Source of the DNA: a virus
Virus record (IMG/VR): IMGVR_UViG_3300045988_122866
Span: 26,982-90,981 of that record
Reading direction: 5' to 3' (one strand)
DNA length: 64,000 nucleotides
Below are positions 40,674 through 64,000 of this stretch, piece by piece (position 1 is the first letter of the stretch; each line of letters starts with the position of its first letter). A program made the translations under genes and the position numbers. Below the pieces are notes generated by a model that ran no database searches, was not told the origin of the DNA, and saw nothing but the letters and a program-made list of their open reading frames with translations.

Positions 40674-40716
40674 AAGGGAGACATTCTTAACTGAATGTCT
40701 CCCTTATTTTTTTTTA
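40674..40716. terminator. Bidirectional rho-independent terminator between the convergent holin and LytTR regulator genes
   Basis: Stem AAGGGAGACATTC / GAATGTCTCCCTT followed by a T11 run. Confidence 0.7.
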
Positions 40717-41430
40717 TCTAAATGGATTTTTCCATCGTCGATTAATTTCTTCATAGCCTTTTTTAGGAAAGTATAAAACTTCACCATTTTTAAAAGTTAA
40801 ATTATCTTTATTCATTATTTTAATTTGATTTAAATTAATAATTAAACTTGGCGGAATAAAGACAAAATCTGGATGATAAACTAAAGTTCCTATATAATTT
40901 TCAAAAGAAGTTTTTAAAGTTTTACTATTTAGAATTTCGTTCTCTAAATGACAACACAAATTTCGTTTTTGAATATCAGCATATAATACTTTACCCAAAT
41001 CAATTTTTACTTCTCCGTTAGGAGTGTCTAAATATTTATATTCACGTCTTTTTTCTTCTCTAACTTCATGTAAAATAGAAAAAATTTTTTCTTTATTAAC
41101 AGGTTTTTTGATGAAGTTAAAGGCCTTTACTTCATAAGAAGCTACTCCATAATTTATTTGAGAGGAAACAAAAATTATTTTTCCAATATACCCATTTGTT
41201 CTTAAAAGATGAGCTATTTCAATACCATCCATTTTTTTGAATGTAATTCCTAAAAAGATTGCATCATAATCAATATTGGAGTTAATTAATTTTTCAGGAT
41301 CAGTAAATTTATATACATATCCTGGTAAATTAAAATCTTTAAAATACTGATTTATTATTTCTTCCAATGAGTCATTTTGCTAATCGCTATTGTCGCAAAC
41401 ACCTACGATAAAAATTTTAATCACCTTCAT
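40714..41430 (-). CDS. LytTR-family response-regulator-like transcription factor with an atypical receiver domain, about 238 aa
   Basis: The C-terminal half matches the LytTR DNA-binding domain (…FVFIPPSLIINLNQI…NGEVLYFPKKG). The N-terminal half is a CheY-like receiver, but the phospho-acceptor position reads FLGI instead of LDI, and the acidic pair is VGVCDN. The true start is ATG 41428-41430, reached by reading through one TAG upstream of tool ORF 40714-41367. Confidence 0.7.
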
Positions 41431-41433
41431 TTT

Positions 41434-41673
41434 GTTTATTTTAGAAAAAATTTTTCTATCTTTATATTCTTTCTATATTATAATTATACAAAAATTTTTA
41501 AATATTGTAAAATAAAAAATTATAAAGTGTCAAATTTATTTAATTTTAAGTAAGTGAAATTTTTATCCAAAAAGTGTCAGTAATTATAATATATTTACAC
41601 AAAATAAAAGTTATATAATAATGAAAGGAAAAGATAAAACCTTTCATTATTATATTTCTCCGGAGGTAATAAC
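41434..41673. promoter_or_regulatory. AT-rich regulatory region between the LytTR regulator gene and the + strand late cluster
   Basis: Several TATAAT-like boxes. The motif AAAGTGTCA occurs at 41524 and 41571, with a related AAGTGAAA at 41552. Confidence 0.5.
41616..41654 (+). repeat. Perfect 14-bp inverted repeat with an 11-nt loop, 20 nt upstream of ATG 41674
   Basis: ATAATAATGAAAGG aaaagataaaa CCTTTCATTATTAT. This could be an operator or an RNA hairpin. Confidence 0.6.
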
Positions 41674-42120
41674 ATGAATACTTATGGTTATCCATAGCAG
41701 TAGTATCCAATAGGTAATAATAGACCTATTTATGGAACAACTGCTACACCTGTGATTCAAAACAATACTGCATAGCGAATTAGACCCGTTGCTTCTTTAG
41801 AAGAGGTTCGAGCTATGAATATAGATTTTGATGGTTCAGTTTTTTATTTTCCTGACTATGCTAATCGTAGAATTTATACAAAACAAATAAATATGGATGG
41901 AACAGCTTCTATTAATATGTATGAATTAAAGGAAATCCCAAATTCTTCTTAGCCTAATAATGACTATATAACACGAGAAGAATTTAATACTACCTTAACT
42001 TCTATTAAAGAGGTATTCGCATAGATTATGGGATCTAATAACGCGGTTGCGCCGTCTTAGGAATCGGGTTAGCCAGCTCAATAGCAACCAGTAGAGAGCA
42101 AACCGCAGTTTAATTTTTAA
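41674..42120 (+). CDS. Gln/Pro-rich protein of about 148 aa
   Basis: RBS GGAGG precedes ATG 41674. Frame 1 runs to TAA 42118-42120 with about 10 in-frame TAG. Confidence 0.5.
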
Positions 42121-42132
42121 GGAGAGTTTTAA

Positions 42133-61179: not shown

Positions 61180-61466
61180 AAACCACTCTCTCCCATCTTA
61201 TGCCCTAATGGACAAATATGAAAAAGAACAGGAATCTCTATTTCCGTATATCCTTTTTCTAAATCTCCATTATATCTAATTACTTTTCGAGTTTCAATTC
61301 CACTTGATATACAATTACTGGTTTTGTCATAATATTTATTACATTTATCGCAATAAATACAACTTCGGAGCAAACTATCTCTTTGTTTTTTTAATCCTTC
61401 GATTTGCGCGCTCAGTGAAATAATTGTATCATTTACAGAGATAGGAATATCATAATCATCATTCAT
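61176..61466 (-). CDS. Small Zn-ribbon protein of 96 aa
   Basis: Contains CIYCDKC…HICPLGH. Confidence 0.45.
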   Translation of the reverse strand: MNDDYDIPISVNDTIISLSAQIEGLKKQRDSLLRSCIYCDKCNKYYDKTSNCISSGIETRKVIRYNGDLEKGYTEIEIPVLFHICPLGHKMGESGL

Positions 61467-62566
61467 ATAAATATCCTTTCCTTATATAATTGTAAAAATT
61501 TTTCTTTACCCTCATCAATTGGTGAATCTTTGTATTTTGTAATCATATTTTTATCAAAAATAAAAGATATAAGCACATCATTTTTAAATTTAGTTCTAAT
61601 CTTTAAAAGATTTAACTTTAAGTGTTGAAATTCCGCATCTCCAATTTCTTGGAATTGCCTATCAAAAGCAATTATAATTTCCTGCGCACCGCTATCTAAC
61701 AATAGTTGAATTTGATGCGAAGAAACATTGCTTCCGCAACAAGCTACTGATATATTATTATTCCAACCAAAATCAGTTGCATATTTTAATACTGATTTTT
61801 CGCTTTCAAAAATGATTGCTTTTTTCATTATGCCAATGGCATTTTTAGACCAATTTAATCCATATAAGTTCATTCCAAGAGGATGATTATATAATTGATT
61901 ATTTATTTTCATTGGTCTATATTTCCCATATAGCTCCGCCTCGTCTTTGCACATAGTGCGTCCGCGCAAGCCTACAAATCTTCCACTAATATCATAATGA
62001 GGAATCGTAATTTGATCGGCTCCTGGATAAAAACCAATACGTGCTTTATTAATTACCTCTTGAGAAATTCCCTCATCAAGCCAAGGAATTATTTTAATAT
62101 TATAATTTAATCTATTTAAAATAGAGTCATCATAATCTTTTAGAATAATTTTATTATTTTTTAATTCAATCTCTTGAATACGAGAATAATTTGATAAAAT
62201 TTTCCAATCATCTAAAGTTTTACCCATATCGTCATCTTTTATCATGCCTGACAAACCAAAACGACGAGCAACCCATAACACTGAATCATTTAAATCAAAT
62301 TCTTCATCATATTGAATTTTCATTACTTTAGAACATAATTCAAAAATATCAAAAGTTGAATCGCATCCCGTGTAGCATTTAAATAATCCTGTATTTTCAT
62401 AAAAATAAAGTTTTCTGCTACCTTCTCCAGGAGGATTATGACAAATGGTGGAAGAGAGAATCCCGAATTCTGTATATTCAGGATCTCCGCCCCATTCAAT
62501 TAATAAATCATAAATATTTTCAAGCCCAAGAGCTTGACGAATTTCTGATTTATCAAATACTATCAT
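61463..62566 (-). CDS. DnaG-like DNA primase with a zinc-binding domain and a TOPRIM domain
   Basis: Zn-finger CHNPPGEGSRKLYFYENTGLFKCYTGC and a TOPRIM-like EIIIAFD segment. Confidence 0.75.
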   Translation of the reverse strand: MIVFDKSEIRQALGLENIYDLLIEWGGDPEYTEFGILSSTICHNPPGEGSRKLYFYENTGLFKCYTGCDSTFDIFELCSKVMKIQYDEEFDLNDSVLWVARRFGLSGMIKDDDMGKTLDDWKILSNYSRIQEIELKNNKIILKDYDDSILNRLNYNIKIIPWLDEGISQEVINKARIGFYPGADQITIPHYDISGRFVGLRGRTMCKDEAELYGKYRPMKINNQLYNHPLGMNLYGLNWSKNAIGIMKKAIIFESEKSVLKYATDFGWNNNISVACCGSNVSSHQIQLLLDSGAQEIIIAFDRQFQEIGDAEFQHLKLNLLKIRTKFKNDVLISFIFDKNMITKYKDSPIDEGKEKFLQLYKERIFI

Positions 62567-62735
62567 AAGTAATTACTTTAGAACAATTTCTCATAAGTCC
62601 ACACTGTTCATTAACATAATGGACAAGCATTTCCTGCGGACGAAGCTTAGCAAGACTAGGAACGGCTTTATAAGAACGAATAATCTCCTTAGCCATTCTA
62701 TTGCTCATCTTGTATTCAACATTACCACTCTTCAT
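62553..62735 (-). CDS. Hypothetical protein of 60 aa
   Basis: Intact ORF. Confidence 0.35.
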   Translation of the reverse strand: MKSGNVEYKMSNRMAKEIIRSYKAVPSLAKLRPQEMLVHYVNEQCGLMRNCSKVITYDSI

Positions 62736-62752
62736 AATTTTTCTCCTTAATT

Positions 62753-64000
62753 TTAAAAAGCTGACTCTTCTTCAAGAGTAATTTTTATATCATCAATAGG
62801 AACAAGTTCATAAGCGTATGTAGTACAAAACATAGGAATAATTCTACAAGTTCCTAAATCTGCTTTACACCATAAAATAACTCCTTTATACCTACCACGT
62901 CTATTTTTATAAACAGACATTTTAATAGTTGGAGTATCAAATAATTTTGTGTTTAGTATTTTTTCCAATGAAATTAAATCATCATCTTGGACATTTAAAA
63001 GAATTGATCCATAATCTACTTTATCGGCAATAGATTTTGCTCCACGCAAAAGATTCTGGTCAGGAGTTTTAGAATCAACATAATCACCATTTAACTGTGT
63101 TGCTGACATAATAAAAACACCATATTGATTACAGATATCTTTTAATTTGTTAGATAGCATAAAAAGTATGTTATCTTCACGAAGTTTTACTCCACCACTA
63201 CGACGAGTAATTTCTTCAAGAATTTTCATGCTTGTATGAATATAGTCGTGAAATATATATTTTACATCGTGATCTCGGATGCCTTTTTTGATTTCATTCT
63301 CGACATCCTGCAATGAAAAATCAGGTAATTCACGGATATACAATGGGCTATCTTTAAGAATTTTTGCGGCCTCTATTACTCGTTCTTTTTCATTTCCTTG
63401 ATATTCATTATAAATAATATGTTCTTCATTCACATTAGAAAGAAAAGCAAGCATCATTGTTTGAATTTCATTTTTATCTTGCTCTGTAGTTATATACAAT
63501 ACTGGTTCTTGAATTCCGTTTTTAATCCAACTTCCAAAAGTATCATCATATATTTTATTACAAGCAATATAGCACGAATCCGCAATCATAGAACGAGTTT
63601 TACCTACTCCTGTGGCCGCGGAACGCAAATAAAACTTTTTAAGTCTTGCACCACGAGTAACTGTATTAATTAATGGCCCATATAGAGGACTTCCTGCTAT
63701 TGGATGTTGCTCTAAGTCATCAAGCAATTCAAAAATTCCATCACCTGCTTGAACCGCAACTCCTTCAACGTCATTTACATACTCATATTTAATTTGTTCT
63801 ATGCGGTCATCAATTAATTGTGCGATATGCTCTAATGAAGAATTATCAAGATTATCTTCTTGTAATTGTTTTTTTTCAGTATCTAAAATATTATCAGGAT
63901 CATAAATAAAAGAAACATCAATGCCATATCTGTCATAAGCACGAAGTAGAGACATTTTTTTTAAACGACCATAATAATAATCAAATGACAAAGGTTTCGC
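62753..64000 (-). CDS. DnaB-like replicative helicase; the 5' end lies beyond the window edge
   Basis: RecA-like C-terminal domain with Walker A ATGVGKTRSM and FIMSATQLNG. The frame stays open to position 64000. Confidence 0.85.
   Translation of the reverse strand, partial: AKPLSFDYYYGRLKKMSLLRAYDRYGIDVSFIYDPDNILDTEKKQLQEDNLDNSSLEHIAQLIDDRIEQIKYEYVNDVEGVAVQAGDGIFELLDDLEQHPIAGSPLYGPLINTVTRGARLKKFYLRSAATGVGKTRSMIADSCYIACNKIYDDTFGSWIKNGIQEPVLYITTEQDKNEIQTMMLAFLSNVNEEHIIYNEYQGNEKERVIEAAKILKDSPLYIRELPDFSLQDVENEIKKGIRDHDVKYIFHDYIHTSMKILEEITRRSGGVKLREDNILFMLSNKLKDICNQYGVFIMSATQLNGDYVDSKTPDQNLLRGAKSIADKVDYGSILLNVQDDDLISLEKILNTKLFDTPTIKMSVYKNRRGRYKGVILWCKADLGTCRIIPMFCTTYAYELVPIDDIKITLEEESAF

Follow-up and report, generated by a model that had tools for sequence, protein, structure and literature searches.

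Does a phage that reads the amber codon TAG as an amino acid spread it evenly over its genes, or does it keep the codon out of some of them? The question arises from a window of 64,000 nucleotides (the whole stretch of DNA analysed here), positions 26,982 to 90,981 of the IMG/VR virus record IMGVR_UViG_3300045988_122866. An original prediction, made from the letters alone, claimed that the density of in-frame TAG separates the replication genes of this window from its virion and late genes, as expected if recoded stop codons hold back late translation until a phage suppressor tRNA accumulates. Our results show that the stretch belongs to the genome of a large phage in which TAG stands for glutamine (genetic code 15), and that TAG use contrasts strongly between the virion and the replication module, with exceptions on both sides.

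TAG encodes glutamine in the window

Treating TAG as a sense codon raised the coverage by open reading frames (ORFs) of at least 100 amino acids, counted stop to stop, from 40.8 kb under table 11 to 69.2 kb and lengthened the longest ORF from 1,338 to 2,837 codons; TGA as a sense codon brought little extra coverage. With TAG as sense we defined 49 genes (g01 to g49), all 49 terminated by TAA or TGA and most of them preceded by AGGAGG-type ribosome-binding sites (the starts used for g33 and g43 were 47250 and 58087, respectively). Conserved genes are full-length only across TAG, since the tape measure, RecJ-like and nrdD genes, among others, match their families through the TAG positions.

The identity of the inserted residue was read from alignments of the window genes, with TAG masked as X, to orthologs that use the standard code. 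Across the 119 window TAG sites covered, the majority residue was most often glutamine (30%, against a background of 5%), followed by glutamate (13%). This spectrum is close to that at CAA/CAG sites, where the majority is glutamine at 40% and glutamate at 13%. The sole TAG of nrdG (47332-47334) falls on the glutamine of the conserved C-terminal RGSxNQ motif, which is a glutamine in every standard-code relative, and several TAG columns of the RecJ-like and RuvC-like genes are likewise Q in the standard-code relative. TAG is therefore a sense codon that aligns with glutamine. A perfect promoter lying just downstream had suggested that the nrdG TAG might be a true stop; we rejected this candidate because the glutamine is invariant and the homology runs past it.

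TAG use contrasts between the virion and the replication modules

Two large modules converge in the window (Table 1), and the sign of the guanine-cytosine (GC) skew flips at their convergence point, at ~40-44 kb. The plus-strand virion genes g01-g20 carry 16.2 TAG per 1000 codons, which amounts to a share of 0.366 of the glutamine-type codons, versus 3.3 per 1000 and a share of 0.091 in the minus-strand genes g28-g49. The fivefold contrast (odds ratio 5) is far beyond chance, whether it is evaluated per codon (Fisher p = 2e-17), among glutamine codons (Fisher p = 4e-16) or at the level of genes (Mann-Whitney p = 0.0014). The case of dnaE illustrates it: none of its 50 glutamine codons is TAG, for which P = 1e-10 at the virion TAG share. 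Base composition was rejected as the cause and is a minor factor, because out-of-frame TAG on the coding strand, counted with the initial gene starts, differs just 1.39-fold between the two gene sets. There is also heterogeneity inside each of the two modules (permutation p < 0.001).

The gene-level statements in the original prediction held up in part on recounting. All the named genes were borne out by Pfam or PHROG matches (dut, nrdG, guanylate kinase, dnaE, Dda/PIF1-like helicase, DHH/RecJ-like, dnaB, primase and RuvC-like) or by structure matches, as for nrdD, which aligns at E = 2e-128 with anaerobic ribonucleotide reductases of solved structure. Our counts agree that dnaE, primase, dut and the guanylate-kinase-like gene lack in-frame TAG, and that nrdD has two, the Dda-like helicase one and the RuvC-like gene three. 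Some figures had to be revised: nrdG, described as TAG-free, carries the conserved codon discussed above; the RecJ-like gene has six TAG instead of four; and the tail genes contain one TAG per 29-140 codons rather than one per 15-60. As for dnaB, the absence of TAG was right for the part inside the window and fails for the N-terminus of its relatives, past the window edge. The proposed split between replication and virion genes thus stands as a fivefold contrast (p = 2e-17) that has exceptions both ways.

The pattern is conserved in recoded relatives

The relatives in IMG/VR, more than 170 contigs of up to ~197-201 kb, form a large family in which recoded and standard-code members are mixed; the genome of the window phage is probably ~195 kb long. 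For each gene we calculated the TAG share, that is, the share of glutamine codons that are TAG, over distinct orthologs from the recoded relatives. The share was close to zero in dnaE (0.003; TAG-free in 22 of 25 orthologs), primase (0.003; 23 of 24), the in-window part of dnaB (0; 19 of 19), the lysozyme-like gene g44 (0; 23 of 23) and dut (0.028; 25 of 27). With rare exceptions, no TAG enters dnaE, primase, dut or the in-window codons of dnaB in recoded relatives down to ~50% identity. Higher shares were obtained for nrdD (0.05; 4 of 26 TAG-free), the Dda-like helicase (0.10; 2 of 26), the RecJ-like gene (0.20; 0 of 24), nrdG (0.205; 5 of 28) and the RuvC-like gene (0.37; 6 of 28). The TAG positions of the RecJ-like and RuvC-like genes mostly differ between lineages, so these codons were gained repeatedly, in genes whose operon neighbours did not gain them. 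This conservation in relatives is the strongest evidence that selection acts on the TAG pattern gene by gene.

Apart from this, the DnaE match spans ~5.0-5.9 kb instead of 4.0 kb in eight relatives (L018, L025, L028, L030, L036, L039, L040 and L046), which suggests that an intein, an intron or a homing endonuclease is inserted in the polymerase gene.

A suppressor tRNA accompanies recoding in the family

We searched the relatives for a tRNA with anticodon CUA, tRNA(CUA), by two pattern scans of IMG/VR and one scan around a conserved flanking gene. A lineage at ~77% DnaE identity has a 14-gene tRNA array that includes it; in this tRNA position 1-72 is unpaired and position 73 is a G, which we take to be glutamine-like identity features. 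The tRNA(CUA) arrays of the recoded relatives share the orientation of the replication genes, upstream of which they lie. When recoding status was combined with the tRNA content around the conserved flanking gene, tRNA(CUA) was present in 11 of 12 recoded contigs and in 0 of 7 standard-code contigs (p = 1.6e-4), and the suppressor tRNA thus co-occurs with recoding in this phage family. A syntenic array with tRNA(CUA) is also found on the 32-kb contig L420, from a sample that also holds the closest relatives of the structural module. Judging from these relatives, the genome of the window phage itself likely encodes a tRNA(CUA).

Two further observations concern these arrays. In the relatives L454 and L504 the tRNA(CUA) genes are 88-91 nucleotides (nt) long with a long variable arm, and these lineages might decode TAG differently or have an insertion in the tRNA. 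In a standard-code member of the family, L466 (contig 3300045988_112927), the syntenic array contains a tRNA with anticodon UUA, of the ochre-suppressor type.

A code switch as the most likely mechanism

Recoded gut phages have been described in which structural and lysis genes use the alternative code and replication genes are standard or "variable"; clades mix codes, and suppressor tRNAs are linked to recoding (Borges 2021, bioRxiv 10.1101/2021.08.26.457843). In crAss-like phages, reassignment lies mostly within the late-gene part of the genome (Yutin 2021, PMC7886860). We consider this published code-switch model the most likely mechanism in the window phage, with a probability of roughly 0.7. 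Under it, TAG would be kept out of the genes that have to be translated by the unaltered host apparatus, here dnaE, primase, dut, guanylate kinase and most of the replisome. A phage tRNA(CUA), probably charged with glutamine, would next allow ribosomes to read through TAG, and full-length products of the TAG-bearing genes could then be made: tape measure, baseplate, fibre, portal, holin, an endolysin located outside the window, and the RecJ-like and RuvC-like enzymes. On top of this, a second constraint may operate, by which the putatively highest-copy virion proteins (g05, and the capsid-like gene of the relatives with its neighbours) avoid TAG. Both the early/late timing and the inefficiency of read-through are what we infer from sequence patterns. 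In outline, the sequence and comparative data fit the suppressor reading of the original prediction; TAG density, though, does not track module alone.

Several results weigh against the code-switch model. ARAGORN found no tRNA and Rfam no RNA gene in the window, and no tRNA was present in the first 258 related IMG/VR loci, which extend ~7 kb to the left and ~20 kb to the right of it; tRNA(CUA) was seen only at ~77% DnaE identity or less and on L420, not in the closest lineage. Essential replication-associated genes carry TAG, namely nrdD with two, nrdG with one and the Dda-like helicase with one, and the RecJ-like gene has six. Moreover, the dnaB N-terminus, a stretch of 98 codons lying past position 64000, has two TAG in 12 of the 14 closest relatives and one in the other two, and the relatives with 100% identity across the 412 in-window codons all have two; these codons lie within a recognisable DnaB N-terminal domain with a strong ribosome-binding site upstream. 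Early genes are therefore not absolutely TAG-free, as the TAG codons of nrdD, nrdG, the Dda-like helicase and the dnaB N-terminus of the relatives make clear. Nor did we detect a 5' clustering of TAG of the kind a dedicated gate might have, as positions are uniform along genes (Kolmogorov-Smirnov p = 0.84). Sigma-70-like promoters precede TAG-rich and TAG-free units alike and give no independent timing signal, and the plus-strand cluster g22-g27, described below, is TAG-dense through one gene only.

The virion module supplies the remaining objections. Its TAG-free genes are g03, g05 and g15 (3 of 20); g15 lacks TAG among 16 glutamine codons (P = 7e-4), and g05 avoids TAG as strictly as dnaE. 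Orthologs of g05 are TAG-free in 38 of 44 distinct recoded relatives (TAG share 0.016), versus a share of 0.445 for the flanking genes g02 and g04. The product of g05 would be a tail tube or major tail protein, given its position two genes upstream of the tape measure, its PHROG class ("virion structural protein") and its matches to PDB tail tube proteins, which are weak (E = 0.05). A profile search of g05 against PDB gave no match, its cluster has no named protein among the members, and the AlphaFold2 model is poor (predicted local distance difference test score, pLDDT, 53). The major-capsid-protein (MCP)-like gene and its neighbours behave likewise in the relatives. Upstream of the window, the TAG share is 0.33 in the portal gene, 0.015 in the gene of a 369-amino-acid protein in capsid position, 0.013 in that of a 309-amino-acid protein (p309) and 0.076 in that of a 197-amino-acid protein (p197). 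The 369-amino-acid protein has no match in PDB or among annotated PHROGs and is called capsid-like from gene order. The avoidance of TAG in these putative high-copy virion proteins suggests that read-through is costly or limiting.

These exceptions can be accommodated by a tentative extension, which we think somewhat improbable as it stands: in the window's phage family, amber codons would act as a dosage filter and a DNA-metabolism switch, beyond an early/late timer. The highest-copy virion proteins would be TAG-free like the polymerase, and TAG would be gained repeatedly by low-copy parts of the virion, by lysis proteins and by the RecJ-like and RuvC-like nucleases. With the onset of the suppressor tRNA, origin-driven replication by a TAG-free replisome would then give way to recombination-dependent DNA processing and resolution for packaging.

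Alternative explanations

The same exceptions are also what one would see if TAG use were set mainly by the required protein output and not by expression time, with read-through competing with release factor 1. Genes of high or reliable output, early like DnaE or late, would be purged of TAG, and low-copy genes would tolerate drift from CAG to TAG in an AT-rich genome. The TAG-free genes of the virion side (g05 in 38 of 44 recoded orthologs, and p309 and the 369-amino-acid capsid-like gene of the relatives) fit this idea, as do the low-copy character of the TAG-rich genes (tape measure, fibres, portal, resolvase), the uniform positions of TAG along genes and its location at less conserved glutamine positions (30% glutamine majority versus 40% at CAA/CAG sites). 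However, output leaves unexplained why low-copy enzymes such as primase, in-window dnaB, dut and guanylate kinase are TAG-free (shares 0-0.03 for three of them), and why the suppressor tRNA is placed in the arm of the replication genes. We hold it to be unlikely as the main determinant.

Two other accounts dispense with selection on individual genes or with switching, and both seem to us very improbable. The replication module might have come from standard-code relatives recently, by acquisition or exchange, and might not yet have accumulated TAG. The family does mix standard-code and recoded members, and the genome has a mosaic make-up: many IMG/VR contigs, such as the 197-kb contig 3300045988_118370, match DnaE and DnaB at 99-100% identity, and contigs with DnaE at this identity have g05 at only 64-86% (best match 86%, mostly 64-77%). 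A recent transfer is nevertheless hard to reconcile with recoded lineages at 77%, 64% and ~50% identity, in which dnaE, primase and in-window dnaB lack TAG, and the lineage-specific TAG codons of their operon neighbours, the RecJ-like and RuvC-like genes, would point to gene-specific selection, not whole-module transfer. Alternatively, the host itself may read TAG as sense or supply the suppressor, in which case the phage would mirror host usage and TAG density would be a codon bias without switching. To our knowledge, no TAG-sense bacteria are known among the Firmicutes, which counts against such a host. The lack of tRNA(CUA) in the window and in the scanned flanks of the closest lineage would agree with a host contribution, and suppressors were seen in only 40% of TAG-recoded genomes by Borges et al. 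Yet where phage and host share a stop reassignment, as in the code-25 phages of the same study, ~90% of phage genes use the codon, compared with 9 of 22 replication-arm genes here, and a host-supplied suppressor would not account for tRNA(CUA) being present in recoded relatives and absent from standard-code ones.

The plus-strand cluster and the transcription signals

The original prediction had further proposed that the small plus-strand cluster at 41674-44605 and the RuvC-like gene are expressed late despite lying next to the early module. For the cluster, the TAG counts of g22 to g27 are 8, 1, 1, 1, 2 and 1 (14 in 950 codons), so that each of the six genes has at least one TAG, versus 9 of 22 minus-strand genes; the claimed density comes from the glutamine-rich g22 alone. 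Without g22, the cluster has 7.5 TAG per 1000 codons, which is not separable from the minus-strand arm (p = 0.11), and its TAG share of glutamine codons is below that of the virion module (p = 0.008). Two near-identical predicted terminators, at 40668-40711 and 44589-44635, isolate g21 and g22-g27 as separate units, and g21 and the cluster have their own divergent sigma-70-like promoters (that of the cluster at 41594-41622). The timing of cluster expression cannot be inferred, given that the cluster has its own promoter and terminators and is TAG-dense in one gene only.

For the RuvC-like gene, the TAG share of 0.37 over 28 recoded orthologs, with lineage-specific positions, gives indirect support to late expression. 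The perfect promoter at 47312-47284 precedes g33, dut, the RuvC-like gene and g28, with no predicted terminator in between; a delay of the RuvC-like gene, if there is one, would arise in translation, which fits the code-switch model. Over the whole window, sigma-70-like matches were not enriched (110, compared with 117.5 in shuffled sequence), and no convincing shared late-promoter motif emerged from the intergenic regions.

The region 40714-44635, bracketed by both terminators, has the appearance of an accessory island at the GC-skew switch. Its GC content is 36%, versus ~30% elsewhere (30% for the window), and it contains the response-regulator/LytTR-like gene g21 and the six small genes, of which g27 encodes an HExxH ImmA/IrrE-like peptidase. 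The divergent intergenic region 41431-41673 contains two direct AAAGTGTCA repeats, at 41524 and 41571, that could be binding sites for a regulator, and a hairpin lies immediately upstream of the g22 ribosome-binding site. On the other side of the second terminator, the ribosome-binding site of g28 (GGAAGGAGG; region 45068-45144, minus strand) is perfectly complementary to CCTCCTTCC, ~30 nt upstream, and the predicted pairing could sequester it.

Table 1. Location of genes, modules and transcription signals in the window
Feature	Position	Strand	Remarks
Virion/tail/holin module, g01-g20	305-40669	+	PHROG and Pfam matches; 210 TAG in 12,966 codons; TAG in 17 of 20 genes
g03, virion structural protein	1716-2297	+	phrog_6123; 0 TAG here, 0-6 in relatives
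g05, tail-tube-like major virion protein	3047-4099	+	phrog_2729, PF27173; 0 TAG
g08, tape measure protein	6120-14606	+	PF10145 core domain; 88 TAG in 2,828 codons, 1 per 32
g15, 553-amino-acid virion-module protein	26884-28545	+	Function unassigned; 0 TAG, 0-3 in relatives
g16, giant 2,581-amino-acid fibre-like protein	28664-36409	+	Weak C-terminal match to BspA-type leucine-rich repeats; 27 TAG, 1 per 96
g20, holin	40259-40669	+	phrog_13712; 1 TAG, codon 87 of 136
Bidirectional terminator hairpin, 19-bp stem	40668-40711	.	Between holin g20 and g21
g21, response-regulator-like gene	40714-41430	-	Receiver and weak LytTR domain; 1 TAG
Six small genes, g22-g27	41674-44605	+	Separate cluster
Bidirectional terminator hairpin, 20-bp stem	44589-44635	.	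Between g27 and g28
Replication/nucleotide-metabolism module, g28-g49	44639-63991	-	20 TAG in 6,145 codons; TAG in 9 of 22 genes
g29, RuvC-like Holliday junction resolvase	45145-45657	-	PHROG/Pfam; 3 TAG in 170 codons
Perfect sigma-70-type promoter (TTGACA, 17 nt, TGnTATAAT)	47284-47312	-	Inside 3' end of nrdG
g34, nrdG	47290-47784	-	1 TAG, at 47332-47334
g35, nrdD	47781-50003	-	2 TAG in 740 codons
g37, dnaE	50646-54659	-	0 TAG among 50 glutamine codons
g44, Phage_lysozyme2-domain protein	58151-58990	-	0 TAG; terminator after it, 58113-58144
g45, RecJ-like DHH exonuclease	59044-60792	-	6 TAG
g48, primase, and g49, dnaB (C-terminal 412 codons only)	61463-63991	-	Both 0 TAG in window

Genes of the replication arm beyond the window

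In relatives, the replication arm continues past the right end of the window and contains other genes of uneven TAG use. Two peptidoglycan-hydrolase-like genes are opposite in this respect: g44 is TAG-free, and a PHROG-annotated endolysin ~15 kb past the right end in near-identical relatives, within the replication arm, is TAG-rich (L245:3589-4890; 8 TAG in 433 codons) and is followed by a gene for a small membrane protein. Among the replication genes just past the window, L146:4538-5551 and its orthologs encode a 337-amino-acid protein with an N-terminal membrane segment that carries 3-10 TAG in most recoded relatives, its neighbours having 0-2; it resembles a strongly recoded transmembrane protein of Borges et al. 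In near-identical relatives, a GIY-YIG homing-endonuclease-like gene with 5 TAG in 229 codons lies between gyrB-like and RNase H-like genes (L245:8107-8796).

Comparison with known systems

With the window, the early/late code-switch pattern already described (Yutin 2021; Borges 2021) gains a further example from a different phage family. The gut phages of Borges et al., in particular the large clades Agate, Jade and Sapphire, share with it the reading of TAG as glutamine, a low GC content and the coexistence of code 11 and code 15 members per clade; this likeness is one of features only, the window having no terminase gene. Both also show a GC-skew switch where modules converge and a strongly recoded homing endonuclease inside the early region, represented here by the GIY-YIG gene of the relatives. 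They differ in two respects. The tail tube family is preferentially recoded in the crAss-like set of Borges et al., whereas the tail-tube-like and capsid-like genes of the window family are almost TAG-free; and, unlike in the Borges phages, the RecJ-like and RuvC-like enzymes are consistently recoded in the window family.

The crAss-like phages that recode TAG or TGA (Yutin 2021, PMC7886860; Peters 2022, PMC9523058) resemble the window family in the recoding of late genes, in code switches over short phylogenetic distances and in the presence of suppressor tRNAs whose correlation with recoding is imperfect. They are, however, an unrelated lineage with Bacteroidetes hosts, PolA/PolB replication and a phage RNA polymerase, while the window phage has DnaE and strong AGGAGG sites. 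Their MCP, large terminase subunit (TerL) and portal genes carry in-frame stops that are used to diagnose recoding (PMC7886860), in contrast to the almost TAG-free capsid-like gene of the window family. In phAss-1, of the proposed Phassvirus (Babkin 2023, PMC10607447), a gut phage of ~136 kb, 41 ORFs contain TAG, hallmark structural genes among them, and three suppressor tRNA genes are present; we found no sequence relationship between it and the window phage.

No close cultured or GenBank relative was found. The best INPHARED matches of DnaE, to SPbeta-like and Enterococcus Schiekvirus-type phages, reach only ~39% amino acid identity; these are large Firmicutes phages that share with the window phage a DnaE-type replicative polymerase (Pol III alpha, YorL-like). 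The strong AGGAGG sites of the window suggest a host that probably has Firmicutes-like ribosome-binding sites.

Implications for recoding in this phage family

For annotation, table 15 is required, as table 11 fragments the tape measure, the fibres, the RecJ-like gene and many others. The window family, which encodes DnaE and has Firmicutes-style ribosome-binding sites, is another lineage in which recoding is concentrated in late genes, and its standard-code sister lineages, together with a tRNA(CUA) that tracks recoding, make it a natural series for studying how recoding evolves. The consistent recoding of the RecJ-like and RuvC-like genes may gate the switch to DNA processing related to recombination and packaging. 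If the conserved exceptions, virion proteins that avoid TAG and RecJ-like and RuvC-like enzymes that carry it, hold true at the level of expression, they would mean that the efficiency of read-through, and not timing alone, shapes recoding in these phages.

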